Shown: positions 15,207 through 56,467 of the stretch, piece by piece | Layout: every line of letters starts with the position of its first letter | How positions within the stretch are numbered: position 1 is the first letter of the stretch | From: an uncultured Leptospiraceae bacterium | Lineage (GTDB): Bacteria; Spirochaetota; UBA4802; JAGODF01 | DNA length: 64,000 bases | Assembly (NCBI GenBank): GCA_964627815.1 | Contig: CAZVKE010000005.1 | Coordinates: forward strand, 270,083 to 334,082 | Direction: 5' to 3' | Position numbers and translations under genes: made by a program | The notes under the pieces: model-generated | Told to the model about the DNA's origin: nothing | Seen by the model: the letters and a program-made list of their open reading frames with translations, nothing else | Database searches by the model: none

Positions 15207-15800
15207 CTATCCCTTCTTCCTTGATTTGATCCAGTTCATCGCGCACAGCATAAACCCGAGGATGAAGAACGCGCCCGGCGCCATGATCATTACCAGCGAA
15301 GGCTGCATCCCCGGTATCAGGGTGTACCCGAGAAGTTTGTTCGATCCGAGCAACTCCCTGAAAAAAGCGAGGACCGTAAGCGTGAAGCCGAACCCGAGCC
15401 CCATGCCCAGCCCGTCAAACGCCGAGTCCACGACGGGGTTCTTTGACGCGAACTCTTCCGACCTGCCGAGAATGATGCAGTTGACGACGATCAGGGGGAT
15501 ATAGATGCCGAGCGCCTTATCGACCTGCGGCTGGAACGCCTTGAGCGACAGCTCGACGATGGTGACGAACGAGGCGATGATCGTGATGAAGATCGGTATC
15601 CTGACATGCTCGGCCACCATTCGTTTGACCATGGAAACGAGCATGTTCGAGCAGATAAGCACAAAGGTGGTCGCCACGCACATCCAGAGCGCGTTCGAGA
15701 CGGAGGTGGACACGGCAAGCGTGGGACACATGCCGATCCCCAGGACGAGGATAGGGTTTCTGTTCCATACGCCGTCGGCGATGAGCTTCAGGTATTTCAT
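15207..15800 (-). CDS. rnfE: Rnf complex subunit E
   Basis: ...NPILVLGIGMCPTLAVSTS... is RnfE/NqrD-like. 197 aa. Confidence 0.8.
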   Translation of the reverse strand: MKYLKLIADGVWNRNPILVLGIGMCPTLAVSTSVSNALWMCVATTFVLICSNMLVSMVKRMVAEHVRIPIFITIIASFVTIVELSLKAFQPQVDKALGIYIPLIVVNCIILGRSEEFASKNPVVDSAFDGLGMGLGFGFTLTVLAFFRELLGSNKLLGYTLIPGMQPSLVMIMAPGAFFILGFMLCAMNWIKSRKKG

Positions 15801-38657: not shown

Positions 38658-39947
38658 TTATCTGCCGCGTTTGGTTCCGAACATATAGTTTCCGGAATCA
38701 GCATCGTTGATGGATCCATCCTGGTTATATACTTTCCACTGGCCGTTTTTCCTGTTGACCATGTACTCGCCTTCCGCCATCAGCCTGCCGTTGGGGAAGT
38801 ACTCCTTCCATTGCCCCTGTTTTTTCGGCGCGTCCCATTCTCCGGTCCAGCGGTACATGGTGCTCTTTTCCGGCTCGTCAGGGGGAGCGCTTGATGACGG
38901 CATGGTGCCGATCTTTTTATTATCCTTCATTATATCATAAACGCCCTTGACAAGACCGATCTGGAGCGGGCCAGTCCCAGCCAGTTTCCCGTTCTGATAC
39001 AGTTTGCTGGCGCTGTTGCTGTCGATCATGCTGTTTGCCAGCGCGACCTCCATAACCAGCTCCCGGCGTCCGCCCGGATATCTGTAAAACTTCCAGAGCC
39101 CGTCCTCAATACTGCGCTTCTCAACCTTTCCCTTGACAGTCGCGTCGATCAGTTTGAAATCTCCTTCTTTCTGCAAGAGCCCTTCAGCTGAGAAGTGCTG
39201 CCACCTGCCAACCATAAGGTTGTTGTTGTAGTTTCCCTTCATGCTTACAAGGCCGTTGTTGTGATAATACTCCCAGAAGCCGGTACGCTTGCCGTTCGAA
39301 TAGGAACCCTTTTCCTTGTGCTTACCGTTCGGCCAGAAAATATTGGAGCTTCCGTCATTCAGATCGTTTCTGAAGGATGACCTCTCTTTCGGCCGTCCGT
39401 CTTCATAATACTCGCTGACAATACCGTTCTTTTTGCCCTCAACGTATTTTTCTTCACGCTGGGGCTTTCCATCTTTATGGTAGGTGGTTTTTGCTCCGGA
39501 AAGTACACCGACCTTTTCCCGTATCGTTTCGCCTATGCCTTCAATCGACTGGGTGATTATGGTATAATTCAGGTCAGCCTGCTTCTGGCCGGTCTCGTAA
39601 TACTGTACCCACGCGCCATTGCGATTTCCCTCTGAGAAATCGCCTTCGGCCATTTTCTGTCCGTTTTTGTGGTAGAAAACCCACCGGCCATCCTGTTTAT
39701 CTTCCTTATAACTTCCTTCGCCCTGTTTTGTCTTGGTATCCATATAAGTATGGACCCACGGGCCGTCCTTTAATCCCTTCTTGAAATTACCCTTTGCAAG
39801 TACGGTTCCCCCGCCGATAACAACCTGCCCCGGACCGTCCTTGACCTTCTGCGCCTGACTGCTTGCCGCCGGCTGCTGCTGCGACGAAGCGCAGGAGAGG
39901 TAGATCACCGAAAGGGCTATACAGCTGATCACAATCCATCGTTTCAT
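38658..39947 (-). CDS. MORN-variant-repeat lipoprotein
   Basis: Lipobox ...IYLSCASS. More than 10 copies of G.W..Y..NG....EG.Y..G..+G.W repeats. Confidence 0.65.
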   Translation of the reverse strand: MKRWIVISCIALSVIYLSCASSQQQPAASSQAQKVKDGPGQVVIGGGTVLAKGNFKKGLKDGPWVHTYMDTKTKQGEGSYKEDKQDGRWVFYHKNGQKMAEGDFSEGNRNGAWVQYYETGQKQADLNYTIITQSIEGIGETIREKVGVLSGAKTTYHKDGKPQREEKYVEGKKNGIVSEYYEDGRPKERSSFRNDLNDGSSNIFWPNGKHKEKGSYSNGKRTGFWEYYHNNGLVSMKGNYNNNLMVGRWQHFSAEGLLQKEGDFKLIDATVKGKVEKRSIEDGLWKFYRYPGGRRELVMEVALANSMIDSNSASKLYQNGKLAGTGPLQIGLVKGVYDIMKDNKKIGTMPSSSAPPDEPEKSTMYRWTGEWDAPKKQGQWKEYFPNGRLMAEGEYMVNRKNGQWKVYNQDGSINDADSGNYMFGTKRGR

Positions 39948-43791: not shown

Positions 43792-43803
43792 GTCATTCCG
43801 TTT

Positions 43804-43878
<75 letters not shown>

Positions 43879-43882
43879 ATAT

Positions 43883-43956
43883 GCGCCCGTAGCTCAGTTG
43901 GACAGAGCAACGGCCTTCTAAGCCGTGGGTCAGAGGTTCGAATCCTCTCGGGCGTG
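43883..43956 (+). tRNA. tRNA-Arg (anticodon TCT); integration target of the downstream element
   Basis: Acceptor GCGCCCG/CGGGCGT. Anticodon stem ACGGC/GCCGT with loop CT-TCT-AA. T-loop TTCGAAT. Confidence 0.8.
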
Positions 43957-43959
43957 CAT
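43915..43959 (+). repeat. attL core: direct repeat, intact tRNA-Arg 3' half
   Basis: Identical to 54985..55029. Confidence 0.85.
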
Positions 43960-44001
43960 AAAAACCGTGCATTTTTCAAAAGAAGAGCAAACCGATCCGC
44001 C

Positions 44002-44020
44002 GGTAGCACTCGGTAGCAAA
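44002..44020 (+). promoter_or_regulatory. Tandem CGGTAGCA(C/A) motifs; candidate integrase arm-type sites (attL side)
   Basis: cggtagcac-t-cggtagcaa. The same tandem pair recurs at 54861..54880, and a single copy at 54977..54985. Confidence 0.4.
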
Positions 44021-44044
44021 ACGGCGATAAATTGGAGGCTCAGT

Positions 44045-45202
44045 ATGAAAGAATCCTCTGACTTTTACCTCTATAAACGGCACACCAAAGACGGCGAATT
44101 CACCTACCACGCCAAAATTAAAACCCTAAATGGATACAGGTCGTTCTCAACCGGAACAGATGACGAGATGAAGGCGACGCGATGGGCCGCAAAGAAGCAT
44201 GCCGAAATTCAGTTGAACCCCGAGATTCTCCCCATACCAAAAAGATCGAAAACACTTTTCCGGAATTACGCGGCCGATTTCTTTTCCTCCTCCGGCAGAT
44301 GGGCGCAGGATCGACGAGCGACAGGAAGGCGGTTGTCTCAGCGCCAATGTGACGAGAAAGAAAGAATACTGAATACACACGTCATCCCGGCTATGGGGGA
44401 TAAGTCACTCTCCGATATTGATAGACGGTATCTGAAGGATTACAGAAACACTCTTCATGGCAAAGGGTACGCCGGAAGCACAATAAACCATATTTTATCG
44501 TGCATTAAAACTATCCTTGAATATGCAGAGGAGGAAGGATTGATATCCGGCCTCCCGAAGATCGAACGGGCATCAGATCGGGTTGTCAAACCTCGCGGAA
44601 TATTGACCCCGGAAGAAATGCGGGATCTCTTCAATGCGCAATGGGACGACCACCGGGCTTACGTGATGAGTATGCTCGCCGCGGCGTCCGGGTTGCGGAT
44701 GGGTGAATGTCTCGCCTTGCGCCATGCAGACCTGAAAGATGGATATATATGTATTGAAAAAACCTGGGACCACATATCCCGAAAGGTGATCAACTCAACG
44801 AAAACAGGCAGGGCGCGCACAATCATTATCCCCCGGCGTGTGCAATATGAGCTTGAGAGACTTATCACCCTGAATCCGTTCCCAGGCGGAGACGGTGAAA
44901 GATTTATATTTTTCGGAAAAACACTGGACGCACCCCTCGATGGAAAGTCAATCCTCAAGTATTTCAAGAGGGCGCTGCGCTCGATTGGAATAACCGAACC
45001 AATAAGGCAGGAGCGTGTGATTGTATGGCACAGCTTCCGGCACTTTTTCAACAGTTTATTATTAAACGAGAAAATCCCCGTCGCAAAAGTCCAGCAACTC
45101 ACCGGCCATTTATCTGATGAAATGACAGAGAATTACTATCACCTCGACGATCTCCACGATATCCGCGATATACAGGAGCGATTATTCCCCCCGATTGAAT
45201 AA
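44045..45202 (+). CDS. int: Tyrosine site-specific integrase (phage integrase family)
   Basis: Sits immediately 3' of the tRNA. Catalytic residues are LRHADL (Arg), WHSFRHFF (His-x-x-Arg, His) and ENYYHL (Tyr). An N-terminal SAM-like domain is present. The true start MKESSDFY is preceded by GGAGG; the ORF-track start would overlap the tRNA. Confidence 0.85.
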   Translation: MKESSDFYLYKRHTKDGEFTYHAKIKTLNGYRSFSTGTDDEMKATRWAAKKHAEIQLNPEILPIPKRSKTLFRNYAADFFSSSGRWAQDRRATGRRLSQRQCDEKERILNTHVIPAMGDKSLSDIDRRYLKDYRNTLHGKGYAGSTINHILSCIKTILEYAEEEGLISGLPKIERASDRVVKPRGILTPEEMRDLFNAQWDDHRAYVMSMLAAASGLRMGECLALRHADLKDGYICIEKTWDHISRKVINSTKTGRARTIIIPRRVQYELERLITLNPFPGGDGERFIFFGKTLDAPLDGKSILKYFKRALRSIGITEPIRQERVIVWHSFRHFFNSLLLNEKIPVAKVQQLTGHLSDEMTENYYHLDDLHDIRDIQERLFPPIE

Positions 45203-45460
45203 ATTTAAAAAAATCAGGCACCTCGAATTTATGGCCGATTTTTTTCTTGATCTTCATATATAAATAAATATTATATCAATAATCACGCTGATGCTCCTCT
45301 AAATATTTGTAGGCGTGGTTCCTTACTTCATTGTTTCTGCAGTGCGGCGTATTCATCAGGAGTTCCCACATAATTTAAAAAACCCGTTCGTTTTCGTGTT
45401 GCGCCCATATATTGCCGTGCGGTTACGCACGTCGAGAGCGCATAATTTTTTCAGGGGGAG

Positions 45461-45649
45461 GTGTGTCCCGTGGAAAATAGCAATTTAGCCAGGGATGACT
45501 TTTATCGTTTGCTACGGGTTTACGAGACGCCGGTATATCACCAGTTTTCCGAACTATGCCGCGAATCTCACTCGAACGTCACAGCGGAGTTGAACCGCTT
45601 CATGCGACGTTGCGCGAAACAGGGACGCCTGATAGGGAGGGTTGATTGA
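45461..45649 (+). CDS. Hypothetical small protein
   Basis: 62-aa ORF. RBS GGGGAGG. Confidence 0.35.
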   Translation: MCPVENSNLARDDFYRLLRVYETPVYHQFSELCRESHSNVTAELNRFMRRCAKQGRLIGRVD

Positions 45650-45867
45650 TGATAAAGATCGATGATGTTCCTATTTCGGGGAATGTTTTCGAGCCTCTAC
45701 AGGATACAAGATGGTTGTCGCATCGACTCAAGGTGTCCGAAAAACAGGCCCGAAAGCTCGCCGGTGCTGGCGTAGTTCCATCAATTAGAATCGGTAGACA
45801 ATATCGGTTTTTGCCGTCTCGCGTCGAGTCGTGGATAATTGACTCGATGGATACGGGGATCAAATAA
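45646..45867 (+). CDS. xis: Excisionase/AlpA-like HTH DNA-binding protein
   Basis: ...WLSHRLKVSEKQARKLAGAGVVPSIRIGRQYRFLPSRVESWI matches the HTH_17/Xis pattern. Confidence 0.55.
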   Translation: MMIKIDDVPISGNVFEPLQDTRWLSHRLKVSEKQARKLAGAGVVPSIRIGRQYRFLPSRVESWIIDSMDTGIK

Positions 45868-45876
45868 GGGGGGAAT

Positions 45877-46080
45877 ATGAAAAAAAATCCTTTTCTACAC
45901 CTTTCGTCACAAAGATACCGTCAGTCACTTGCACTTCGCGAACGTTTCGCGGATCGTATGAGGCCATCCTCGAAATCAGAGAAGGACGAAAAGCCGAAAG
46001 AAGTCAGCGTCGGCGGAGTGGTTTTCGTGAATTCAATCTCGGAGCTCGTCGGCGGCAAGGGGGCGGAAAATGAGCGATAG
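45877..46080 (+). CDS. Hypothetical small protein
   Basis: ORF with a GGGGGGA RBS. Confidence 0.3.
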   Translation: MKKNPFLHLSSQRYRQSLALRERFADRMRPSSKSEKDEKPKEVSVGGVVFVNSISELVGGKGAENER

Positions 46081-46306
46081 AACCACATGGGATAACATCC
46101 CCGATGAACTGTTGGCGCGCTCGCTCGTCATGATGAAGAAATATACAAATCGCTCTGACGAGGAGCTTCGGAAGTTCAACAGGCTCCATGATATCGTGCA
46201 GGCCGACGATATTGACGAACTGATTAAATTCATGGCGCAGTATGAGCCGGGGGCGGGGAGTGGCACGGTTGGATCGCAAAGAAGAACGAGCCGACGCGGG
46301 CACTGA
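46070..46306 (+). CDS. Hypothetical protein; possibly the N-terminal part of a frameshifted gene continuing in 46242..46472
   Basis: Overlaps the next ORF by 65 nt across a gggggcgggg homopolymer tract. Confidence 0.3.
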   Translation: MSDRTTWDNIPDELLARSLVMMKKYTNRSDEELRKFNRLHDIVQADDIDELIKFMAQYEPGAGSGTVGSQRRTSRRGH

Positions 46307-46472
46307 GATCGACGACGATCTCACAATAAGGGCAATCGCCGAATTGGAGCGGTTGTTCATCGAGTCAAGCCGGGCGCACTTTCAATTCGAAAGACTCCGC
46401 GACGCGATGGCGTCCGACGACCGCGAACTCGTCGCGGTAATTTTATCACAACTGAAGGAGAATCAATCATGA
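46242..46472 (+). CDS. Hypothetical protein (see the preceding feature)
   Basis: ORF only. Confidence 0.25.
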   Translation: MSRGRGVARLDRKEERADAGTEIDDDLTIRAIAELERLFIESSRAHFQFERLRDAMASDDRELVAVILSQLKENQS

Positions 46473-47131
46473 GTCAAGAAATATTATTCGCAACACCGAA
46501 AAATACACCTGATTTAAGGAGCCCCGAGCCGATCACGGGGGAATTAAATGATACAGCGGTCGCCGAAATCCGCCGCCTCGACTCCGAGGAGATGGAACTT
46601 ACACAACGTCGTGCTGATATATATCAGAAAAGAAACGCCATACGATATGCGATGGAGAACAGAAGCGCCGACGGTATTCGCGAAGCCGTGAAGGCCGCGC
46701 GGGAGGGAGATGACATATTCGCAGTACTTAAAAACATCAAATTTGATATGGTACAATCCGCCAACGTGGTTATAAACGTTTCCTCACAGATGCCGGACGC
46801 GCTCAAAAAGCTCGAAGAAATTCAAAATGCATATCCCGGAGAGGTTTCAATTCATGAGCCATTTGCACGAAGGGTTCGGCTTCTACGTGAGGATGCAAAA
46901 AACCACGCGATGAATTGCGCGTCAACCGAGACGCGATTCCGTTCGGCGATCTCGTTGATCATGGAGAAATATCGCACGGAATACGAAGCCGCAAAGAGCA
47001 AGTATGAAGTACTCGAAGAAAGAGCAACCGCCATCGAAAAGGACTTTTTCGATAAATTAAAATCAACCTCTGGCGATATCAAAAAGGCTCTGGCCGCAAT
47101 CGAGCCGGGCGGTGCGAATGGCAAACATTAG
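46469..47131 (+). CDS. Hypothetical island protein (220 aa)
   Basis: The ORF start overlaps the previous stop. No motif recognised. Confidence 0.45.
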   Translation: MSQEILFATPKNTPDLRSPEPITGELNDTAVAEIRRLDSEEMELTQRRADIYQKRNAIRYAMENRSADGIREAVKAAREGDDIFAVLKNIKFDMVQSANVVINVSSQMPDALKKLEEIQNAYPGEVSIHEPFARRVRLLREDAKNHAMNCASTETRFRSAISLIMEKYRTEYEAAKSKYEVLEERATAIEKDFFDKLKSTSGDIKKALAAIEPGGANGKH

Positions 47132-49442
47132 CCTGACAATCAAATCTGATTTCGCGCAAGCCGAGCGGGATTTTAGATCATTGGTCGGAACATCTGAGGA
47201 TCTTCGCGGTAAGATTGAAAAGTTGCAATCCACATTCAAGACGGAACAAATAGATAAGTTCATCGCAAAAAACAAGCTCAATGCCGTCGCCATCCAAGCC
47301 ACTCAGGGGCCGACGGCATCTCTTGCGGCAGAGACTCGTGGGTTACAACGTGAAATTCAACGCCTTATCAACGCCGGTATTTCACCGCAGGACGCGGAGT
47401 TAAAGCGGCTCACCACTACTTACAATTCCTTAATTGCTCAACAGTCCCGAGCGCAAGCAGTCAATCAGTCCGGAACGTCGTCACTCATGAACTATGCGGC
47501 AGCGACTGCGGCGTTCTATGGAGCTATGCGCGCAGGACGCACCGTATGGGACAGCTTCATCGAACCGGCGATGAGGGCGCAGGAAGCCGCGTCGAAATTC
47601 GACACCATATTCGCGTCACAGGCTCCCGGCGTTCGGGCATGGGCTGACACATTGTCGGTATCGATAGGCCGGTCATCTCGCGAGCTTCAGGGCATGGCGG
47701 CTGACATGATGGCGGTACTACAGCCTATGCCGGGAATCGGTGCGGCCGCGACATCGATGTCGGAGAGGCTCGTACAGGTCGCGCAGGATATATCCTCCTT
47801 TCACGACGTAGACGCGAGGGAGGCATTCAACGCCGTACGATCCGGTATACTCGGAGAAACGGAACCGCTTCGCCGGTTTTCTATCGATCTCACCGATGCG
47901 TCAATGAAGGAATACGCTCTCGCGCAAGGCATCAGAAAGCGCGTCGAGGATATGTCCTCCGCCGAAAAAGCGCAGCTCAGATACAATATCATACTTGCGC
48001 GCATGGGTGAGGCAAGCGGTGACGCAGAGCGCACCAGCGGATCATTGACAAATAAAATCCGCGCACTTGAAGCGGCTCTCTCTGATCAATCGGTGGCTCT
48101 CGGAAGCAGGGTTATTCCTGGGATGACGACGCTGGTTTCCGCGATGACCGATGCGACGAGAAACGGCGGCGGATTCAGTGAAATGCTCAAGACGATGGCC
48201 GACGACGTGAATGTTATCATCGAGAGCATCGGGAATCTTGTCACGTTATACAACAGGTTAAACGGATCATCATCTCCCGAGTGGATCAAGAATATTAACG
48301 AGGGCCTGTCTGCAATGATCAACATCCTCGCTCCCGCAAAGGCCCTGTGGGATTATTCGACGGTTGTTCTCAGTGCATTCAATAATGAGATGCGAAGCAA
48401 TGCCCCGTCGGAAATGGAGAACAAGCAGAGGCAATTATTCACGCTCTCGACACAGTTGACGACTGTTTATGGGAGCATGGAGATTGCTCTCAGGAATACC
48501 GGAGACGCTGGCGTTCAGGCTTTCAACCGGATCACAAGGGAGTTGAACATCCTGAAGATCGAAGCCGCCGCCGCCGCTGATCCGACGGGAACGCTTGCGA
48601 GAATTGCAACCGTATTACGTCAGGGGATGACATCGACTGTTGCGGCTGGCGCATCTACGAGACAGCAGTTACTCGAACAGCGCCAAAAATTCGACGAGGA
48701 GTGGTTAAAGAAAGACGCAGAACTCGCCATAGCAGAGGAGGCGAACGGTGAACGCCGCCTCGCGATGCGACTCGATCAGCTCGCGCGCGAATACAAACAA
48801 ACTATCGACCAGGCAATTCGTCTCGGAGCCGACCTGACGGCGATTGATGCGTATTACTCCGGTCAGCGGGTCAAGGTTGAACGGGATGAGACACAGAAGC
48901 GCCAGAGGGAGATTGTCGAGTATTGCCGCACGATGGTTTCCAATATGCACTCCGCTTTCTCCGACCTCCTGACGACAATGCAGAATTTCGGGCATCAGGC
49001 AAAGGCGCTTGTCATCACGGTCAAAGTCCTCGCGATGGCGGAGGCGGCGATCAACTCATATCTGGCGTTTACTCAGGTTCTTCAGGATCACACCATCTGG
49101 CCGACGTGGGCAAGGATACCGATCGCGTCAACCATTCTCGCCGCGGGTCTTGCCAAACAAGCCGCGATTGCCTCAACGCCTATTTCGGCCGAGACAGGTA
49201 TCACGCAGTATACCGTGCCGGAGATCAGGGCGAACCGTAATGATAAAGCCCCGGTCATGGCATCTGCCGGCGAGCGCGTGACGATCGAGCCGAGGGGGGA
49301 GACGGCAGATCGGACAGCAACTTATCAATTCCAAGTAGACTCGTCGACGATATGGCGGGTCGTGCAGAAGGGTCTCGACAGCGGTCATGTTCATGTTCGT
49401 GTAAATCCGCGAAACGTCGGGAGGAGTGCATTTGCATCATAG
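47112..49442 (+). CDS. Large alpha-helical protein resembling phage tail tape-measure proteins
   Basis: Long coiled-coil and Ala-rich protein. ...DAREAFNAVRSGILGETEPLRRFSIDLTDASMKEYALAQG resembles the tape-measure core motif. Hydrophobic segment IPIASTILAAGLAKQAAIA near the C-terminus. No other tail genes are present. Confidence 0.45.
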   Translation: MRMANISLTIKSDFAQAERDFRSLVGTSEDLRGKIEKLQSTFKTEQIDKFIAKNKLNAVAIQATQGPTASLAAETRGLQREIQRLINAGISPQDAELKRLTTTYNSLIAQQSRAQAVNQSGTSSLMNYAAATAAFYGAMRAGRTVWDSFIEPAMRAQEAASKFDTIFASQAPGVRAWADTLSVSIGRSSRELQGMAADMMAVLQPMPGIGAAATSMSERLVQVAQDISSFHDVDAREAFNAVRSGILGETEPLRRFSIDLTDASMKEYALAQGIRKRVEDMSSAEKAQLRYNIILARMGEASGDAERTSGSLTNKIRALEAALSDQSVALGSRVIPGMTTLVSAMTDATRNGGGFSEMLKTMADDVNVIIESIGNLVTLYNRLNGSSSPEWIKNINEGLSAMINILAPAKALWDYSTVVLSAFNNEMRSNAPSEMENKQRQLFTLSTQLTTVYGSMEIALRNTGDAGVQAFNRITRELNILKIEAAAAADPTGTLARIATVLRQGMTSTVAAGASTRQQLLEQRQKFDEEWLKKDAELAIAEEANGERRLAMRLDQLAREYKQTIDQAIRLGADLTAIDAYYSGQRVKVERDETQKRQREIVEYCRTMVSNMHSAFSDLLTTMQNFGHQAKALVITVKVLAMAEAAINSYLAFTQVLQDHTIWPTWARIPIASTILAAGLAKQAAIASTPISAETGITQYTVPEIRANRNDKAPVMASAGERVTIEPRGETADRTATYQFQVDSSTIWRVVQKGLDSGHVHVRVNPRNVGRSAFAS

Positions 49443-49523
49443 CGCACAAACGACGACGCGCCCGGGATTGGGTCCGAGCGCGAAGCGATAGGGAAACAAA
49501 ATTTATCTTGAGAGGTTTAAAAC

Positions 49524-51590
49524 ATGCATTACCAACAAATCACAACTGACGCAATTTGTCAACAAAAAAATCATGATTTAAAATTTTATTTCGATATTGA
49601 AAAAGAATGCATCGATCTACTGGCGAAAGAACAGCTCCTCGAATGGGCAATCTCCCCGGAGTTCGGGTTCAGGGAGACGGGAGACGATACGGGTGATCCG
49701 TTCTCTGACGGCGTGTGGTCAGATGATGGCGGTTTCATGCTTCACGACGGCACACTCATAGACGAGGCCGGCATCTGCCATCGTATCGGTGAAAGTTTCC
49801 CGGTGACTCAGCTCATAGCCGGGTGGATCAAAGTCACACCTGAAGAAGTCGCCGAGCGTCTGCTGAAGAAATTCGCTGGCGACGGAATCCCTGGCGCACT
49901 CGATATACTACGAGATCACCGAAGCGGAAGGGAGGAATGGGAACAGCTCGGAAAGCCTGTTCCGGGAGAGCGCGGTCTGGTGTTCAATTCGGTCATGGGG
50001 TATGGCATCGACGAAAATCTCGAACCCGGTTCTCCGGCATGGATAGAAGCCGACCTGAGGAATGCGCAGATCGCCGATGAGGATATGGATGTTGTGAGAA
50101 AACATCATGAGCGGCTGAAGCGTGATCTCGCGACTGAAGAATTACAAGGGGTTGGTATGAATGTGACGCATGCCGAGAGTGGCCCGAAGCTTCCCACGAT
50201 ATCGGGCGGAGTTCCCATGCCGGAGAGCTGGCAATTCAGGCCGAGCGATCTTTCGAATACAGAGATATTCGCGGCGCTGGCACGCGGTCGCGTACTTTAT
50301 ATCCCGGAGCTGAAAACATGGCACTATTGGAGCGGAAAGAGGTGGCAGGCCGATCCCCAACGCATCCAGGTCGAGAAGATAGTCGTTGAAACCATTCAAA
50401 GCATATATGCTCTTTCGGCTGATGCGGCGAGCGAGAGCGAGCGAAAGCTTTACGCGGCATGGGCGCTAAAATCCGAAGATGAGTCGAAACGGCGCGCCAT
50501 TGTTTCGGGAGCAGAGCGTCACTCCGATCTCGTCAAGTCATTATCAGAATTCGACACAGATCCATATATCCTCAACTGTCAAAATGGCGTTATTGATTTA
50601 AGGACGGGGAGGTTTCACGGGCACGAATCCGATGATTATCTTATAAAGATGATCCCGGTCAATTATGACAGAAAAGCAGAGTGCCCCTTGTGGCTCGACA
50701 CTGTATCGAAAATCTTTAACAACGATGCTCCCCTCATGGAATACTTCCAGAGGATCGCAGGTTATACCCTTACCGGAAGCACGAAGGAACAGGCGCTCTT
50801 TTTCGCTTATGGCCGGGGCCGGAATGGAAAATCGACGGTACTCGAAACGCTGTTTCACATCATGGGCGATTATTCGCGGCGCATCGAGACAAACTCCCTG
50901 ATGGCAAAAACAGCGCGAGCGGCAGGATCGGCGAGCGAGGATATCGCGAAATTGAACGGAATACGGATGATTCTCTCATCGGAAGTCGAGGACGGACACA
51001 GAATAAACGAAAGCCTCATAAAAGACCTGACGGGCACCGATACGGTCACGGCGCGGCATCTGTATTCGCGATCATTCGATTTCCAGGTAATAGGAAAGAT
51101 TTTCATGTTCGGGAATTACAGGCCGCGCGTAAAGGGACAGGATGAGGGTATCAGACGGCGCGTGAAAATGATTCCCTTTTCTCATACGTTCACCTCACCC
51201 GATAAGGACATGCCCGAAAAGCTAAAGTCCGAGCTCCCTGGTATATTGAATTGGATGATAGAGGGGTGTATCAAGTGGCGGTCTGCCGGACTCATGGAAC
51301 CGGAGGCCGTAACAGTGGAAACCAAAAAATATTTTTTGGACAACAATGATCTGCAACTCTATTTCAATGATAATTTCGAAATATGCGAAGGTTCCGCGAT
51401 CCTGTTTTCCGACTTCTATGAAGGATTTATGGAATACACCGGAAAGGGGAAAGTATCGAAAATCAAATTTTCGCAGATGATGTCCGACATACTCGACCTT
51501 CATGTCGAACCGGGTGCCGGAAACAGGAAATATGTACAAGGAATAAGGCGTATTATTCAAGAATATGATGAAATTCCATTCATGGAATAG
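49524..51590 (+). CDS. Primase-helicase of the phage/plasmid P4-alpha / D5 NTPase family
   Basis: The C-terminal half carries the D5_N/primase-C region: NGVIDLRTG..., the Walker A GRGRNGKST and ...IRMILSSEVEDG.... Confidence 0.75.
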   Translation: MHYQQITTDAICQQKNHDLKFYFDIEKECIDLLAKEQLLEWAISPEFGFRETGDDTGDPFSDGVWSDDGGFMLHDGTLIDEAGICHRIGESFPVTQLIAGWIKVTPEEVAERLLKKFAGDGIPGALDILRDHRSGREEWEQLGKPVPGERGLVFNSVMGYGIDENLEPGSPAWIEADLRNAQIADEDMDVVRKHHERLKRDLATEELQGVGMNVTHAESGPKLPTISGGVPMPESWQFRPSDLSNTEIFAALARGRVLYIPELKTWHYWSGKRWQADPQRIQVEKIVVETIQSIYALSADAASESERKLYAAWALKSEDESKRRAIVSGAERHSDLVKSLSEFDTDPYILNCQNGVIDLRTGRFHGHESDDYLIKMIPVNYDRKAECPLWLDTVSKIFNNDAPLMEYFQRIAGYTLTGSTKEQALFFAYGRGRNGKSTVLETLFHIMGDYSRRIETNSLMAKTARAAGSASEDIAKLNGIRMILSSEVEDGHRINESLIKDLTGTDTVTARHLYSRSFDFQVIGKIFMFGNYRPRVKGQDEGIRRRVKMIPFSHTFTSPDKDMPEKLKSELPGILNWMIEGCIKWRSAGLMEPEAVTVETKKYFLDNNDLQLYFNDNFEICEGSAILFSDFYEGFMEYTGKGKVSKIKFSQMMSDILDLHVEPGAGNRKYVQGIRRIIQEYDEIPFME

Positions 51591-51688
51591 TTACCGAGTT
51601 ACCGAGTTACTCATTTTTTAGGAATTTCACTACGCGAGGCCATTCAAGGAAAAGTCTTATAAAATGAGTAACTGAGTAACTGAGTAAC
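51590..51688. repeat. Inverted arrays of AGTTAC-type iterons; candidate replication origin or primase-binding site
   Basis: gttaccgagttaccgagttactcat ... 50 nt ... atgagtaactgagtaactgagtaac. The arms are imperfectly complementary and each contains 3 direct 8-nt repeats. It lies immediately 3' of the primase gene. Confidence 0.6.
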
Positions 51689-51706
51689 TTTTATAGGGGG
51701 GCAATC

Positions 51707-52117
51707 ATGCGATTTATTCAATATCGATCGATTGACAATAACGTCTATCACTTCGATTTTTCGGGTTTTGAGGTCGACGAATCGCTCCTGCCGACAGGAC
51801 GACACGCGCGAGACGCTCTTTCCCCTGACGACCGGATCAGGTTCGCCGACGAGCTGCGGGGCGCGGCCGATCGCTGGCAACGCGGGGCGGCTCCTCAACC
51901 GGAACCGGAGACGAACGGGAGGAGGATCATATACGACGCGCTCGCGCCTGGGGAGCCTCTTTTCATCGGACAGGTAGTCGAGAGGACGGGATTGCCTTAC
52001 AATAGGGTAAAATTTTCATTGTTTGATATGCATAGAGCTGGAAAAATAGAAAAAGTTGGTCGCGGGAAGTACAGAAAGTTGGTGCCGCAGGATGGGCAAC
52101 TTTCAGACCAACTTTGA
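51707..52117 (+). CDS. Hypothetical protein with a C-terminal winged-helix-like segment
   Basis: ...LFIGQVVERTGLPYNRVKFSLFDMHRAGKIEKVGRGKYRKL. Followed by a terminator hairpin at about 52190..52225. Confidence 0.45.
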   Translation: MRFIQYRSIDNNVYHFDFSGFEVDESLLPTGRHARDALSPDDRIRFADELRGAADRWQRGAAPQPEPETNGRRIIYDALAPGEPLFIGQVVERTGLPYNRVKFSLFDMHRAGKIEKVGRGKYRKLVPQDGQLSDQL

Positions 52118-52474
52118 CGGCCTTTTTATAGGCGCTGAAGGTTCATTCTCCATGGAAAAATAGACTTTTGCCGGCGTGGAGGCGTCGGTTCGCTCGCCCT
52201 GGGTAAAACCGGGGCTTTTTTATCAAGTAAAGTTAACACTTTATGTAAACCGGTTTTTCAAAACCTCATAGAAATCGTCGCGCGGGCGCTTGCACCTGAT
52301 GTCGAGAGGGGCTCCGGTCAGGACCCGTTGACTATTAAAAATAATGAAATGGATTATTATTTTTCTTGCCCCCTGGCGGGGGTGGGGGGAGGGTATACCC
52401 GTATACAGGTGAGGAGCAAGAGGGTGCCGTCCTCTTTGATGATTGATGCATGATGATTTCAATAATAGGTTGGT

Positions 52475-52684
52475 GTGCGTGCCATGAGGCGCAGAACTTT
52501 ATTTATAATAACAATAGCGTTATTCCTGTCCTGCTCGGATAGGACACCGAAATTCTGTCATAAGGAATTCAAATTATGTATAGATCGTGGTAATGAAGCC
52601 AGCGCATGCTTTTCGAGGGTGAATGCGTGCCTTAAGTTTGTTGAAAGATATCGCCCTACATCGGAGCAGGGCGAAGGGAGGTAA
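52475..52684 (+). CDS. Small Cys-rich putative lipoprotein
   Basis: MRAMRRRTLFIITIALFLSCSD has a lipobox-like LSC. There are six Cys in 69 aa. AT-rich. Confidence 0.35.
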   Translation: MRAMRRRTLFIITIALFLSCSDRTPKFCHKEFKLCIDRGNEASACFSRVNACLKFVERYRPTSEQGEGR

Positions 52685-52686
52685 AA

Positions 52687-53589
52687 CTATATTGACTTTA
52701 AAGTGTTATAAAAATCATCTTCATTGATTATTGGAATATAAATACCATCGTTTCTCAATCTCATCACTTTCTCAATTTTCCTTCCATACGTAGAATAGAT
52801 CCAACATGGATTAGAAAGCGCTCCGACAACAAGATAATTTAATCCCTTAATAACACTATTGGCAACGAAACCACCCTTCAAAACCAAAAGAGATTGAATA
52901 TCTTTTCTTGTTCCATATTTCATTTGTCCAGTTAAGCAAAAATGTTTTCGGTGAATAATTATATCTATATCTTTATCAACAATTCTATCAATCGTTTTCA
53001 ATACTGGCGCATTGGTATTCATCCAGTAGTCAACAAACATAGATGAATCTTTTGCTTGGTTATCTGATTTTTCTTCTGCAAAACATTTTGCAAATGAAAT
53101 AAAATCTTCCTTCTCTTTTTCTGTAATCTTGCCATCTTTTAAAATATTTCTAACTAAGTCATAACACTCGCTATATGGCCACAATCCTATATTGGAATTG
53201 TGATATGTTAACCATTTTTTAAGAGCCTCTAACTCCAACGTGTTTATTTCCCTATCGCACACTATCCCATGAAGAAACCCATGCAGATTCCTCATCTCTT
53301 TTGTCATTTGATCGATAGGGCCCTCCAGGGCCTGAAATTGATCACAGAAGTCAATTATCTCTTCTTTTTCATACTGGTCAATAATTCCATCTTCTAAAAT
53401 TCCATCGATGAAAGTATATGCTTCAGAAAAGGGATATATGTGACTAAAATTCTTATGGTTATCAAGCCATGTTTTTAATGATTCTATCTCTTTAATATTT
53501 ATTTCTCTATCGGCGGCTATACCCTTCAGTAATCCCTCTAATGTGTGAATGGCTCTTGATGCTTCAGTAATTTTCCCGGTAATAGCCAT
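52687..53589 (-). CDS. Protein with an N-terminal tandem ~85-aa helical repeat and a C-terminal BRCT domain
   Basis: The repeats are REINIKEIESLKTWLDNHKNF..YPFSEAYTFIDGILEDGIIDQYEKEEIIDF and REINTLELEALKKWLTYHNSN..WPYSECYDLVRNILKDGKITEKEKEDFISF. The C-terminal FCLTG...RKDIQSLLVLKGGFVANSV.KGLNYLVVG...GRKIEKV is a ligase-type BRCT. RBS GGGAGG. Distinctly AT-rich. Confidence 0.6.
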   Translation of the reverse strand: MAITGKITEASRAIHTLEGLLKGIAADREINIKEIESLKTWLDNHKNFSHIYPFSEAYTFIDGILEDGIIDQYEKEEIIDFCDQFQALEGPIDQMTKEMRNLHGFLHGIVCDREINTLELEALKKWLTYHNSNIGLWPYSECYDLVRNILKDGKITEKEKEDFISFAKCFAEEKSDNQAKDSSMFVDYWMNTNAPVLKTIDRIVDKDIDIIIHRKHFCLTGQMKYGTRKDIQSLLVLKGGFVANSVIKGLNYLVVGALSNPCWIYSTYGRKIEKVMRLRNDGIYIPIINEDDFYNTLKSI

Positions 53590-53673
53590 GTCAATCCTCC
53601 CTTTAAATGATATTCAAAACATATGCATATTCATAATAAGGTCAATCATAAAATGATAAGACGTGGAATGAAT

Positions 53674-54345
53674 CTAAAGAACATCTATGCCGAAGGGGAA
53701 GTCTGGTTCATCATCATCGTTGTAGATGTCATAACTGGATAATGAACCAAATTTATTACCCTCACGTCTATGAAATCCGATATACTTTCCGCCGTCCTTG
53801 TGATTCGCCTTAATGAATTTATAAGTAACGATCGTGGATGTGTGGTCTTCCATATTTGCACATTTATGTGAATTATTCTTGAGGGGGTTTTTCTCTTCAT
53901 CATCACAAACCGAAAACCTAAAACCGGATCTACAATATTTATTAAATATGTATGTTGGCTGTGATAGAATTATCTCTTGATACTTGGGGCGCTTATGAAA
54001 AACAATAAGTGAATTCCGCGGGATTACATTATCTTCAATTATTGTATCTTGTGCGAGTCTGCCGCGAACTATTTCTCCCGTTCTATAAAATTCTACTTCA
54101 TGTTCATGGCTCAATTTGAAACCATTGTAATATTCATCATTCTTCAGGAAGGCTATCTTTGTTTCACCGGCCTTGAAAACAAATCTTGTATTATGATTTT
54201 TGCCAAAGTGGTTAAGTGCGTAATTCAAATCCTCAATCTTTTCTATTATTTTCTTTTGACCGAGTGTTTTATGTGGGAAGAGTCTGACAATTCTCGATAA
54301 TTCAAAATACTTCTCATCATTCATTTTGTGAATTACCGAGAACAT
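53674..54345 (-). CDS. Hypothetical 223-aa protein (no recognisable family), co-operonic with the BRCT protein
   Basis: AT-rich ORF. Contains a Cys/His cluster, CRSGFRFSVCDDEEKNPLKNNSHKC. Its start is 18 nt after the RHH stop. Confidence 0.5.
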   Translation of the reverse strand: MFSVIHKMNDEKYFELSRIVRLFPHKTLGQKKIIEKIEDLNYALNHFGKNHNTRFVFKAGETKIAFLKNDEYYNGFKLSHEHEVEFYRTGEIVRGRLAQDTIIEDNVIPRNSLIVFHKRPKYQEIILSQPTYIFNKYCRSGFRFSVCDDEEKNPLKNNSHKCANMEDHTSTIVTYKFIKANHKDGGKYIGFHRREGNKFGSLSSYDIYNDDDEPDFPFGIDVL

Positions 54346-54363
54346 TAAAGACGCACCATGTGG

Positions 54364-54534
54364 GCTAATTTTTAGATTTTGGCAATATTCGTTTTTCTAT
54401 GGCGTGTTTAATCGCATTCCCTACAAAATCTTGAATACTTATCCCATTCTCTGCGCAAAAAACCTTTAAAGCTCGCATTTCTTCGGAGGGAAGTCTGAGG
54501 GTTGTTTTTGATAATCCTTCGTTCATTTTATTCA
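54364..54534 (-). CDS. Ribbon-helix-helix (CopG/ParD-like) DNA-binding protein, 56 aa
   Basis: Not in the ORF track (under 60 aa). Hand translation: MNKMNEGLSKTTLRLPSEEMRALKVFCAENGISIQDFVGNAIKHAIEKRILPKSKN, with a TLRLPSE beta-strand followed by two helices. The upstream intergenic region carries the inverted repeat ctgtcaag...cttgacac.ttgacag. Confidence 0.55.
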
Positions 54535-54642
54535 TGATTTAATATACACATGGTATTTTTTTCTGTCAAGACAAAAATATCTCTTGACACTTTGACAGCA
54601 AGGTGTCATTGTTCTTATATATTAACAATTGGAGGTTTTAAA

Positions 54643-54795
54643 ATGAATATACTGCTCGAAACACTTAACGAACGCGAACGCGAATTGGATGAGAGGGAAG
54701 CTCGCATAATAAATAATCACCGGAACATTGTTTGCATGCTCAAAGTGGTTAAAGAGCTGCTGGACGAAGCCATTTACGGCAAGAAAGTGGCGTGA
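54643..54795 (+). CDS. Small coiled-coil protein (50 aa), divergent from the RHH operon
   Basis: GGAGGT RBS. MNILLETLNERERELDEREARIINNHRNIVCMLKVVKELLDEAIYGKKVA. Confidence 0.35.
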   Translation: MNILLETLNERERELDEREARIINNHRNIVCMLKVVKELLDEAIYGKKVA

Positions 54796-54860
54796 GTTTA
54801 TCGGTATATGGGTACATATAACCCCGCAAAAACTGCGGGGATTTTTTTATCATATCTCAC

Positions 54861-54880
54861 CGGTAGCACCCGGTAGCAAA
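54861..54880 (+). promoter_or_regulatory. Tandem CGGTAGCA(C/A) motifs (attR-side arm-type sites)
   Basis: cggtagcac-c-cggtagcaaaaa. A third copy at 54977..54985 abuts the attR core. Confidence 0.4.
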
Positions 54881-54984
54881 AATAGACATTTTTTGCGGGT
54901 CGTATGGTCTTTTTCTTGACAGAATGGGGCGTAAAAGTACATAAAAGTATATCGAATCGCTTAACGGGCGTTTATTCGGTAGCA

Positions 54985-55029
54985 CTTCTAAGCCGTGGGT
55001 CAGAGGTTCGAATCCTCTCGGGCGTGCAT
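54985..55029 (+). repeat. attR core: duplicated 3' half of tRNA-Arg(TCT)
   Basis: Identical 45-mer to 43915..43959. No 5' tRNA half is present here. Confidence 0.85.
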
Positions 55030-55435
55030 TTCCTTCCCTGTTTCCAGCAATACCGATTTCCCGGCACATATATCAACACATATCCAATCTTCCGATTCTG
55101 AAACAGCCGTGCCGGTCAGGCATGATCGATTATTATAATATGCATACTTATATATAAAAATTATCAGCGTAACACTTTTATTGTATTGACGCTGATTTCA
55201 CCCAAACCTATTGTTTTGCACGAATCGTGAATTCGTTATCCGGAAACTGCGATGAAAAGGAAAGAACTCATACTGATACCTTATGAGTTCTCACAGAGCG
55301 CAGGGCACGCTTCGCAGTTGATTTTTAATGTGAAAGGCGGAACTCATGAAGTATGACTAATATCCTTCCATCGCATTCCCCCAAAGCACATTTGCGTCAA
55401 CTGCATACAATTAAGGATTGTATCGGGAGGACATC

Positions 55436-55633
55436 ATGACAAAAATACCGCTTGGGGAACTGCTTGTAGAAGATGGTATACTTACCCCGGATCAGCTTCA
55501 AACGGCCATGGACATTCAGAAAAAAGAAGGCGGCCTTATTGGAGTTATCCTCATCAACCTCGGTCATATCGACGAGAAGACACTTATTAAATATCTGGCC
55601 CTTCAAACAGAAAGCGTGATCAACTCAAAATAA
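55436..55633 (+). CDS. Stand-alone MshEN-type (GspE N-terminal-like) domain protein; putative c-di-GMP receptor
   Basis: MTKIPLGELLVEDGILTPDQLQTAMDIQ-KKEGG-LIGVILINLGHIDEKTLIKYLALQ. This gives two 24-residue (R/P)LGxxLVxxGhhxxxxLxxxLxxQ motifs separated by 5 residues. RBS GGGAGGA. Confidence 0.55.
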   Translation: MTKIPLGELLVEDGILTPDQLQTAMDIQKKEGGLIGVILINLGHIDEKTLIKYLALQTESVINSK

Positions 55634-55686
55634 TCTGTCGTCCCTGACGATTATCTTTCCTGATCGCCGCTTATTACGCTTCCGCG

Positions 55687-56178
55687 TCAGCGCTCAGCAG
55701 GCGTCCGGGAATCGTTCTGTTTGATCATTTGTTCAAGCTCGCCGACCAGAGACTCATAATAGGCGTTTGAGAAGAAACGATAGATATCAATCCTGTCATT
55801 TTCAAATGTCCGGAGTATCTGCCTGTACTGGCTCGCGCCCTCGGTATGGTCGGCGCATATACCGTGCCGTTTTCCGTATCCGCACAGGAGGCAGCTCGGG
55901 TTGTTTGTGGCCCTGCCGCACCCTTCATGTTTGTATTCGTATTTATGGCAGAAGGGGCAGAACTCGTAGCGGAGGCCTGAGCATTTATGATGAAACACAT
56001 TGTATTTTATCTTGCCCCAGACATCCTGTGCCTCCTTCTCCTCCCAGCTCATTATATCATCGCGGTCGCCATCGTTGAAATACCACTCGGAGGGAATGGT
56101 AAGTTCCTCCTGCATCCAGGCGGCTTTTTTTTCCATAAACTGAACAAGGGCGCTGTTGTAGGCTTTCATGGCGGTCAC
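55687..56178 (-). CDS. Cys/His-rich hypothetical protein (putative metal-binding)
   Basis: HHKCSGLRYEFCPFCHKYEYKHEGCGRATNNPSCLLCGYGKRHGICADH. Confidence 0.45.
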   Translation of the reverse strand: MTAMKAYNSALVQFMEKKAAWMQEELTIPSEWYFNDGDRDDIMSWEEKEAQDVWGKIKYNVFHHKCSGLRYEFCPFCHKYEYKHEGCGRATNNPSCLLCGYGKRHGICADHTEGASQYRQILRTFENDRIDIYRFFSNAYYESLVGELEQMIKQNDSRTPAER

Positions 56179-56467
56179 ACTCCGGAAATATAGATCGGTA
56201 TGAGATGGATAATTGCTGTTTAAAGCTAATCTTGATACTCTTTACCTGTCAATTTTTTTTCATCATTTATGTTTGCATCCGGAAATATTGTTCTCAGGTC
56301 CTCGCTTCAGCAGCATAAGGGGGATATATCCCCTGATCAGATAAAAAATGTATCGACATCTACCGGTATGGCGTCGCACTGTTGTTGTCATGCGAAAAAG
56401 CGGCATTGTCCGCAAAGGCCCGGAGATGTGCCTTTATCAACGGCATCAGTGTGATATAATTACGGAT

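Follow-up and report, generated by a model that had tools for sequence, protein, structure and literature searches.

The 64,000-nucleotide (nt) stretch of contig CAZVKE010000005.1 analysed here, referred to below as the window, comes from an uncultured Leptospiraceae bacterium. Positions 43915-55029 are very probably an integrative element that targets a tRNA gene by means of a tyrosine integrase, and its only recognizable virion gene is that of a tail tape measure protein. How does an element come to carry this one gene of a phage particle? The reading we favour, and to which we give about an even chance, is that of a phage satellite that depends on a helper and brings a tape measure of its own. 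Its principal rival is an eroded (cryptic) prophage, which we regard as possible and on the whole unlikely: a lambda-like temperate siphovirus would have been stripped of its genes for head, tail and lysis after entering at tRNA-Arg, retaining integrase and excisionase, a replication module and some morons, with the tape measure left by chance, kept through domestication or selection, or acquired recently. Such a remnant may still excise, yet would not be transmitted in particles. All evidence is computational and drawn from metagenome assemblies. The coordinates of the features are collected in Table 1.

The tape measure is central to the argument. Whole-length matches to it are few, about a dozen among 5.8 billion proteins, and the closest, P0002 (778 amino acids, aa), is 60% identical end to end and sits in a complete siphovirus tail module. 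The length of the element protein, 776 aa, compares with 775-802 aa in the closest full-length homologues. Genomic contexts were retrieved for eight homologues, five of full length (P0002, P0003, P0004, P0005 and P0007) and three whose match covers at most half of the query (P0009, P0012 and the IMG/VR contig L007). In six of the inspected contexts (L002, L004/L005, L008, L009, L019 and L020-22) the tape measure stands in a canonical siphovirus tail module. In the best-resolved loci (L002, L004/L005, L008 and L009) a tail tube gene is followed by two chaperone-like open reading frames (ORFs), the tape measure and then the distal tail genes; portal_2, ClpP protease and cap_E capsid genes lie upstream in most of them, with a GpA terminase also in L004. 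Judged by its homologues, the 776-aa protein is a genuine tape measure, which is more than was claimed by the initial annotation, where it was called tape-measure-like. It is also clearly phage-derived, with homologues that otherwise stand in complete tail modules, as would be expected of a prophage remnant.

Other phage structural genes are missing. No capsid, portal, terminase, tail-tube, tail-tip or lysis gene was found among the element ORFs with Pfam, PHROGs and NCBIfam profiles, or by tblastx with the phage loci; the initial annotation had already stated this for capsid, portal and terminase. With the genes of a complete siphovirus absent and 11 kb being too small for one, the proposal that the gene set fits a satellite, an island or an eroded prophage better than a complete phage holds. 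In addition, when related phage loci were compared by tblastx, the tape measure was the only phage gene of which any part was detected, both within the element and in the rest of the window, and this argues against erosion. At the DNA level, blastn (word size 9) of the element with all phage loci, which probably do not include cos regions, found only the tape-measure gene to be shared, and no similarity to GenBank phages was seen. Scans of viral contigs returned only the distant phage L007 with the tape measure, one distant relative (24% identity) with the integrase alignment and no relative with the helicase ('primase').

A second element bears on the choice between satellite and eroded prophage. 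It lies on a contig of another 'uncultured Leptospiraceae bacterium' metagenome-assembled genome (MAG), GCA_964591055.1, the context of P0004 (loci L003 and L006), and is called L006 here. The two hosts have a flank in common, consisting of Band_7, NfeD, adk, a MORN protein, flgG-A-H-I-J, tRNA-Pro and tRNA-Arg(TCT), and the flanking host proteins are about 55-90% identical. Directly after the tRNA, L006 carries an integrase 75% identical to that of the window, then homologues of the small ORF o62 and of the helix-turn-helix (HTH) protein (47% identical), then immediately a 775-aa tape measure, and after it four small or medium-sized ORFs. One of these is o126, whose C-terminus is homologous to o67 of the window. 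In the window the o67-like gene stands between the HTH gene and the tape measure, and in L006 it comes after both; a single colinear prophage could not have given rise to the two arrangements by deletion. Moreover, in both elements the nucleotide homology to the phages starts at the tape-measure ATG and stops at the stop codon, with different neighbouring genes. The only structural gene left is complete, and exact trimming of a 2.3-kb gene in two elements is not expected of random deletions.

The tape measures also appear to have been exchanged with phages, as they are nearer to phage alleles (61% for the window, 56% for L006) than to each other (50%), and positions 48843-49300 of the window have 82% nucleotide identity to phage L002. 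Is there a sign of relaxed constraint, as might be sought in a decaying gene? A relative-rate test with L008 as outgroup gave 63 unique changes for the element tape measures and 48 for L002 (p=0.15), which is not a significant acceleration. Tests with L009 or L004 as outgroup were discarded as invalid because L002 is closer to these two. Taken as a whole, the comparison with L006 favours a satellite over an eroded prophage, without settling the matter.

The age of the insertion points in the same direction. The two att cores of the element are identical (45/45 bp), whereas the window host and the L006 host have six differences in this tRNA segment, which suggests recent integration and not a long decay. 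The initial annotation described the repeat, CTTCTAAGCCGTGGGTCAGAGGTTCGAATCCTCTCGGGCGTGCAT, as the 3' 45 nt of tRNA-Arg repeated exactly. The exact 45-bp repeat stands; strictly, 43 nt of it belong to the tRNA, since it opens 2 nt before the anticodon and extends 2 nt beyond the tRNA 3' end given by ARAGORN. The bordering bases differ on both sides (left c versus a, right a versus t), which fixes the length of the repeat at exactly 45 bp and that of the unit at 11,070 bp. There are two copies in the window when up to three mismatches are allowed, and none in 100 shuffles, and the right-hand copy does lack the 5' part of the tRNA. The integrase gene begins 86 nt after the left core. A pair of direct repeats that copy the 3' part of the target tRNA, one of them adjoined by a PF00589 integrase, is the attL/attR structure that had been proposed.

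The initial annotation had allowed for the repeat being generic and for the inner genes being syntenic in all relatives. Neither is the case. A degenerate att core matched metagenome contigs eight times, on every occasion in a complete tRNA(-Arg) gene, and the exact core had no match in viral contigs, so that this is not a dispersed repeat; nor are the inner genes syntenic in relatives. One of the contigs so matched, from activated sludge (ENA UPTA01007680, L016), has the flgH-I-J/tRNA-Pro/tRNA-Arg flank, with flgH, flgI and flgJ products 61, 73 and 50% identical to those of the window. There, in the stretch 5608-7244 of L016, the minus strand encodes a large serine recombinase of 529 aa, the 3' end of whose gene overlaps that of tRNA-Arg; AT-rich genes and a radical-SAM-like ORF of 263 aa follow. 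The tRNA-Arg of L016 is thus occupied by an integrative element of another kind. With different elements in L006 and L016, the site represents an integration hot spot of variable content.

Base composition sets the segment apart as well: GC is 51% in the element core and 37% in the cargo (52200-54984), versus 57% in the right flank. An independent k=31 assembly of run SRR9878565 presents the element as a contig of its own, 11,100 bp long (L018, Logan SRR9878565_24350), which corresponds to window positions 43930-55029 with one mismatch. Its ends are identical over 30 nt, and its length equals 11,070 plus k-1 (30 nt). The chromosomal contig of the same run (L001) stops inside tRNA-Pro, at window position 43876. 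A second run contains these contigs as well. The separate contig may stem from a circular or higher-copy form or simply from the repeat; as evidence of a circle it was rejected, because a repeat-bounded unitig after tip clipping gives the same length. That ordinary chromosome lies between the repeats, through a partial tRNA duplication or a MAG assembly artefact, is hardly credible: the genome is a metagenome assembly and the k=31 assembly breaks at the repeat, yet the independent assembly reproduces the element, the integrase abuts the repeat, the end-specific motifs described below are present, the composition differs, and relatives carry other elements at the same tRNA.

How might the element be propagated? 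As a satellite it would be excised as a circle by the integrase and the excisionase/AlpA-like HTH protein. The attP of this circle would be about 230 bp long, with the 45-bp core between two copies of CGGTAGCA to one side and three to the other. Replication of the circle would start at the iteron origin, which lies directly after the helicase gene, and would be carried out by this D5/P4-type helicase. Since the element is without capsid, portal, terminase, tail-tube and lysis genes, it would be packaged in the particles of a lambda-like siphovirus with the same hosts, in whose tails the element tape measure, apparently exchanged with phage alleles, would replace that of the helper. This chimeric-tail strategy would be of the kind demonstrated for the Vibrio PLEs considered below. 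The low-GC operon on the minus strand would be accessory cargo expressed in the integrated state, and may have a role in phage exclusion. A tentative extension, which we consider less likely than not, is that these elements constitute a new, tail-specialised satellite lineage of Leptospiraceae, devoid of capsid-redirection and packaging genes, with a tape-measure cassette repeatedly swapped with helper alleles and a fibre-like gene in one member. In that case the satellite would itself determine the interior and the injection module of the tails on its particles. What could be gained? One speculative benefit would be escape from a superinfection exclusion by the helper that is aimed at tape-measure-mediated DNA entry, and with it entry into helper-carrying cells.

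Several points weigh against the satellite, and some of them favour a prophage remnant. No helper phage, cos or pac packaging signal, small terminase or capsid-redirection gene was identified, and the profile searches recognised no satellite-specific hijacking gene. No homologue of the phage tail assembly chaperones was found in the element beside the tape measure, unlike the situation in PLEs. Helicases of the D5/P4 type occur in complete temperate phages too, e.g. phi105, and the replication module therefore does not discriminate; BRCT genes of the Orf2 type, one of which is in the cargo, are likewise found in complete temperate phages. Besides its tape measure, L006 has at 15455-15701 the beginning of another tail-module gene, whose product is 83% identical to a protein of 321 aa from phage L002, where the gene follows those of the tail; this fits a patchwork of phage leftovers. 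The three tail genes that lie in L002 between the tape measure and the 321-aa gene are absent from L006. The relative-rate result is confounded by mosaicism. The L006 contig ends 5.7 kb past the integrase, so that its content is known in part, and the two known members of the lineage are both from MAGs. The identity of the integrases (75%) is within the range of the host proteins, and the integrase module may go back to an old common ancestor. Right-flank exact-protein look-ups, integrase scans and the degenerate att-core scan located no empty attB, and the unit-length contig does not count as evidence of a circular form. A scan of genome contigs with the integrase found only the L006 MAG, and a metagenome scan with the integrase alignment found nothing. 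Finally, tail genes are forbidden components of the SatelliteFinder models for phage-inducible chromosomal islands (PICIs) and capsid-forming PICIs (cfPICIs), although an element with a single such gene can be recovered in post-processing (PMC10085698).

An integrative plasmid-like or mobilisable island, moved by conjugative mobilisation, transformation or vesicles with the tape measure as a passenger, is decidedly improbable. A core of integrase, HTH protein, helicase and iterons is typical of integrated replicons and implies no packaging, and indeed no packaging gene or site was found. Against this, no ORF matched a relaxase, coupling protein or type IV secretion component in profile searches (oriT was not searched), and an intact 2.3-kb gene in two diverged elements, apparently exchanged with phage alleles, would be hard to explain without a phage-linked function.

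With which known systems does a satellite of this kind have most in common? Like the PICIs of Gram-negative bacteria, the element is about 11 kb long, with a terminal integrase, an AlpA/excisionase-type HTH protein, a primase/helicase-type gene with the iteron origin just 3' and accessory genes at the far end, and likewise has no capsid, tail-tube or lysis genes. The PICI set of integrase, regulator and primase-replicase is represented here, weakly so for the regulator (HTH_17 score below cut-off) and for the 'primase' (helicase part only). Small terminase and capsid-morphogenesis genes (ppi/cpm/rpp) had no match in Pfam, PHROGs or NCBIfam, SatelliteFinder's own profiles not having been run. 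The PICI model comprises five core components, of which at least four are required, and holin genes are also forbidden; in the accompanying survey Proteobacteria and Firmicutes accounted for >99.9% of the PICIs detected (PMC10085698). The element differs in having three of the five components and a tape-measure gene, and in its spirochaete host. P4 offers comparable likenesses: about 11 kb, a tyrosine integrase at a tRNA, the helicase signature of the P4 family (TIGR01613), an AlpA-like HTH protein and an accessory hot spot at one end. The P4-like model has seven core components, namely psu, delta, sid, epsilon, alpA, alpha and integrase (PMC10085698). Three of them are present here; psu, delta, sid and epsilon were not found, the N-terminal primase of P4 alpha is undetected in the element, and P4 carries no tail gene. 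With three of five PICI components, three of seven P4 components and a forbidden tail gene, the element is a member of neither family as defined. As for cfPICIs, no capsid, portal, head-tail adaptor/connector or large terminase was detected, the tblastx queries being phage loci with portal, ClpP protease, major capsid and part of the L004 large terminase.

Satellites with a tape measure are a closer parallel. In the PLEs of Vibrio cholerae the recombinase is of the large serine type and the initiator is RepA_N. A tape measure, a tail assembly chaperone and a baseplate hub are all encoded by the PLE itself, and its tails, otherwise made by the helper, are chimeric; the PLE tape measure is only about 20% identical to that of the helper (PMC12987554, Nature 2026). 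The likeness consists in a satellite-encoded tape measure, and the mechanism is the one that we propose for the element. The element differs from PLEs in its lone tape measure, 60% identical to a phage's, and its tyrosine integrase, and no chaperone or other tail genes were found. Putative tmp genes also occur in PLE-like elements and some cfPICIs (PMC12987554). The EPIPs of Mycolicibacterium, described in a preprint, are small satellites with a tape measure and without tail-tube and lysis genes, and they also encode a small terminase, head-to-tail adaptor, stopper, scaffold, major capsid and serine integrase (PMC12822802); none of these packaging and head genes, and no serine integrase, is in the element. 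Cryptic lambdoid prophages resemble it in the tRNA site, the tyrosine integrase with excisionase, a siphovirus-derived gene and morons, and differ from it in that the element has a single intact structural gene, no detectable pseudogene debris and identical att cores. The element is set apart from PLEs, PLE-like elements, cfPICIs with tmp genes and EPIPs by three traits: a tyrosine integrase directed at a tRNA, a tape measure as the sole virion gene, and the close kinship of this tape measure with the alleles of presumed helpers.

A tape measure owned by a satellite has been shown (PLEs) or proposed (EPIPs, some cfPICIs) only in 2025-2026 (PMC12987554, PMC12822802). If the satellite reading is true, an independent lineage in Leptospiraceae with the tape measure as sole virion gene would support tail manipulation as a general satellite strategy, would mean that current detection rules discard such elements, and would offer a minimal, one-gene system in which to study the benefit of such a gene to a satellite. 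Should it prove to be only a prophage remnant, the element would count as an ordinary genomic island of little significance.

Table 1. Features of the tRNA-Arg element and its target site, in window coordinates
Feature	Position	Strand	Description and evidence
tRNA-Pro(TGG)	43803-43879	+	ARAGORN
tRNA-Arg(TCT)	43883-43957	+	integration target, intact at attL; ARAGORN; Rfam RF00005 71.3 bits at 43883-43956
attL core	43915-43959		45-bp exact direct repeat CTTCTAAGCCGTGGGTCAGAGGTTCGAATCCTCTCGGGCGTGCAT
Candidate arm-type integrase sites, left	44001-44018	+	two copies of CGGTAGCA, 10-bp phase, 42-59 nt inside attL
Tyrosine integrase	44045-45202	+	385 aa, ATG at 44045; PF00589 1.8e-22; phrog_1 3.8e-50
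o62	45461-45649	+	62 aa; 40% identical to L006 homologue; no family match
Excisionase/AlpA-like MerR-type HTH protein	45646-45867	+	73 aa; HTH_17 1e-05; TIGR01764 'excise' 3.3e-04
o67, o78, o76	45877-46472	+	three small overlapping ORFs (67, 78, 76 aa)
p220	46469-47131	+	220-aa orphan; overlaps tape-measure start by 14 nt
Tail tape measure protein	47112-49442	+	776 aa from GTG (774 aa from ATG at 47118); phrog_1535 1.5e-22
D5_N + SF3 helicase (P4-family 'primase C-terminal' region)	49524-51590	+	688 aa; PF08706 1.9e-29; TIGR01613
Candidate replication origin	51589-51689		GTTACCGA GTTACCGA GTTACTCA, 51-bp spacer, then inverted TGAGTAAC x3
p136	51707-52117	+	136 aa, last plus-strand operon gene; weak C-terminal winged-helix signal
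BRCT cargo protein	52687-53589	-	300 aa, two internal repeats + BRCT domain; phrog_3989 9.2e-74
223-aa cargo protein	53674-54345	-	MORN_2-like central repeat region
Arc-like ribbon-helix-helix protein	54365-54535	-	56 aa, first minus-strand cargo gene; phrog_582 1.8e-05
Candidate arm-type integrase sites, right	54861-54984	+	three copies of CGGTAGCA (54861, 54871, 54977)
attR core	54985-55029		exact second copy of CTTCTAAGCCGTGGGTCAGAGGTTCGAATCCTCTCGGGCGTGCAT, without tRNA 5' part

The integrase is intact. When aligned to XerA (4A8E), its residues R218, K253, H329, R332, H355 and Y364 provide the six catalytic residues, i.e. the full R-K-H-R-H-Y set of tyrosine recombinases. Five copies of the 8-mer CGGTAGCA are present in the 64 kb versus 1.25 expected, in one orientation and only at the element ends; at the right end two copies are 107-124 nt before attR and one (54977) abuts the attR core. 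L006 has CGGTAGAA twice in tandem just upstream of its integrase, in the same place as the left pair of the window. The five copies are candidate arm-type integrase sites.

The HTH protein had been called Xis-like, and the HTH_17 and TIGR01764 (3e-04) matches bear this out, the HTH_17 score (26.1 bits) being just below the cut-off of 27. The neighbouring o62 is possibly a small regulator. The ORFs between the HTH protein and the tape measure are less easily placed. Among 5.8 billion proteins p220 has no homologue besides itself, and it shows no similarity to p210 of L006, nor do o78 and o76 to o79 of L006. As p220 or the small ORFs might have been the tail assembly chaperone, they were compared by hhalign with phage proteins of 121 and 106 aa; the probabilities were below 1% and the idea was rejected. 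Upstream of the tape measure, o78 and o76 (46070-46472, plus strand) overlap by 47-65 nt in different frames; their frame relation is +1, versus the -1 typical of tail-chaperone frameshifts, and they have no similarity to chaperones.

The initial annotation named a P4/D5-type primase-helicase. The helicase part is well founded (D5_N; TIGR01613 at 247 bits versus a cut-off of 108.7, with matches to D5/C962R helicases in PDB as well). The primase part is not: Pfam, NCBIfam, PHROGs and PDB revealed no primase domain in the N-terminal 240 aa, and matches start at about residue 220-240. An AlphaFold2 single-sequence model of residues 1-245 was unusable (pLDDT 36.6). The iteron region fared better, and consists of 3+3 inverted iterons that start at the stop codon of the helicase gene. 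They are a candidate replication origin; PICI origins are placed similarly.

Ten genes, from integrase to p136, are on the plus strand. From o62 on they mostly overlap or are at most about 10 nt apart, the larger gaps being those between integrase and o62 (258 nt), tape measure and helicase (81 nt) and helicase and p136 (116 nt, which contains the iterons). A terminator-like hairpin (52196-52215) follows p136, whose weak matches are to DprA_WH (0.006) and the AbiEi N-terminus (0.009). The coding fraction of the element is 85%, and this compact arrangement speaks for a satellite over a remnant. An independent gene call on the second assembly (L018) reproduced the gene set.

The minus-strand cargo is preceded by the best sigma-70-like promoter of the region (54569..54541). 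Its first product, the Arc-like protein, has weak ribbon-helix-helix Pfam matches as well. The 300-aa BRCT protein resembles Orf2 of Vibrio phage K139 (Kappa kp3), with 29.5% identity over 93%; the Orf2 gene is situated about 2-3 kb from an end of the K139 record. A further match is to NCBIfam PRK06195, of which the protein covers the C-terminal two-thirds and not the exonuclease part. PADLOC gave only marginal matches to known defence systems in the cargo, and the 223-aa protein had no Pfam, PADLOC or PDB match. A 429-aa MORN_2 protein is also encoded in the left host flank (38658-39947, minus strand), where it is conserved in L001 and L003.

Two further observations concern the surroundings. 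The T-arms of the neighbouring tRNA-Pro and tRNA-Arg (43850-43872 and 43928-43950) have 22 of 23 nt in common, which is unrelated to the att sites. Beyond attR, the 1.3 kb up to hypF (55030-56347) has a GC of 45% versus 57% in the hyp genes, and encodes an ORF of 71 aa (55418-55633) and a Cys/His-rich one of 163 aa on the minus strand (55687-56178) that has no Pfam match. This segment could be the remains of an older insertion.

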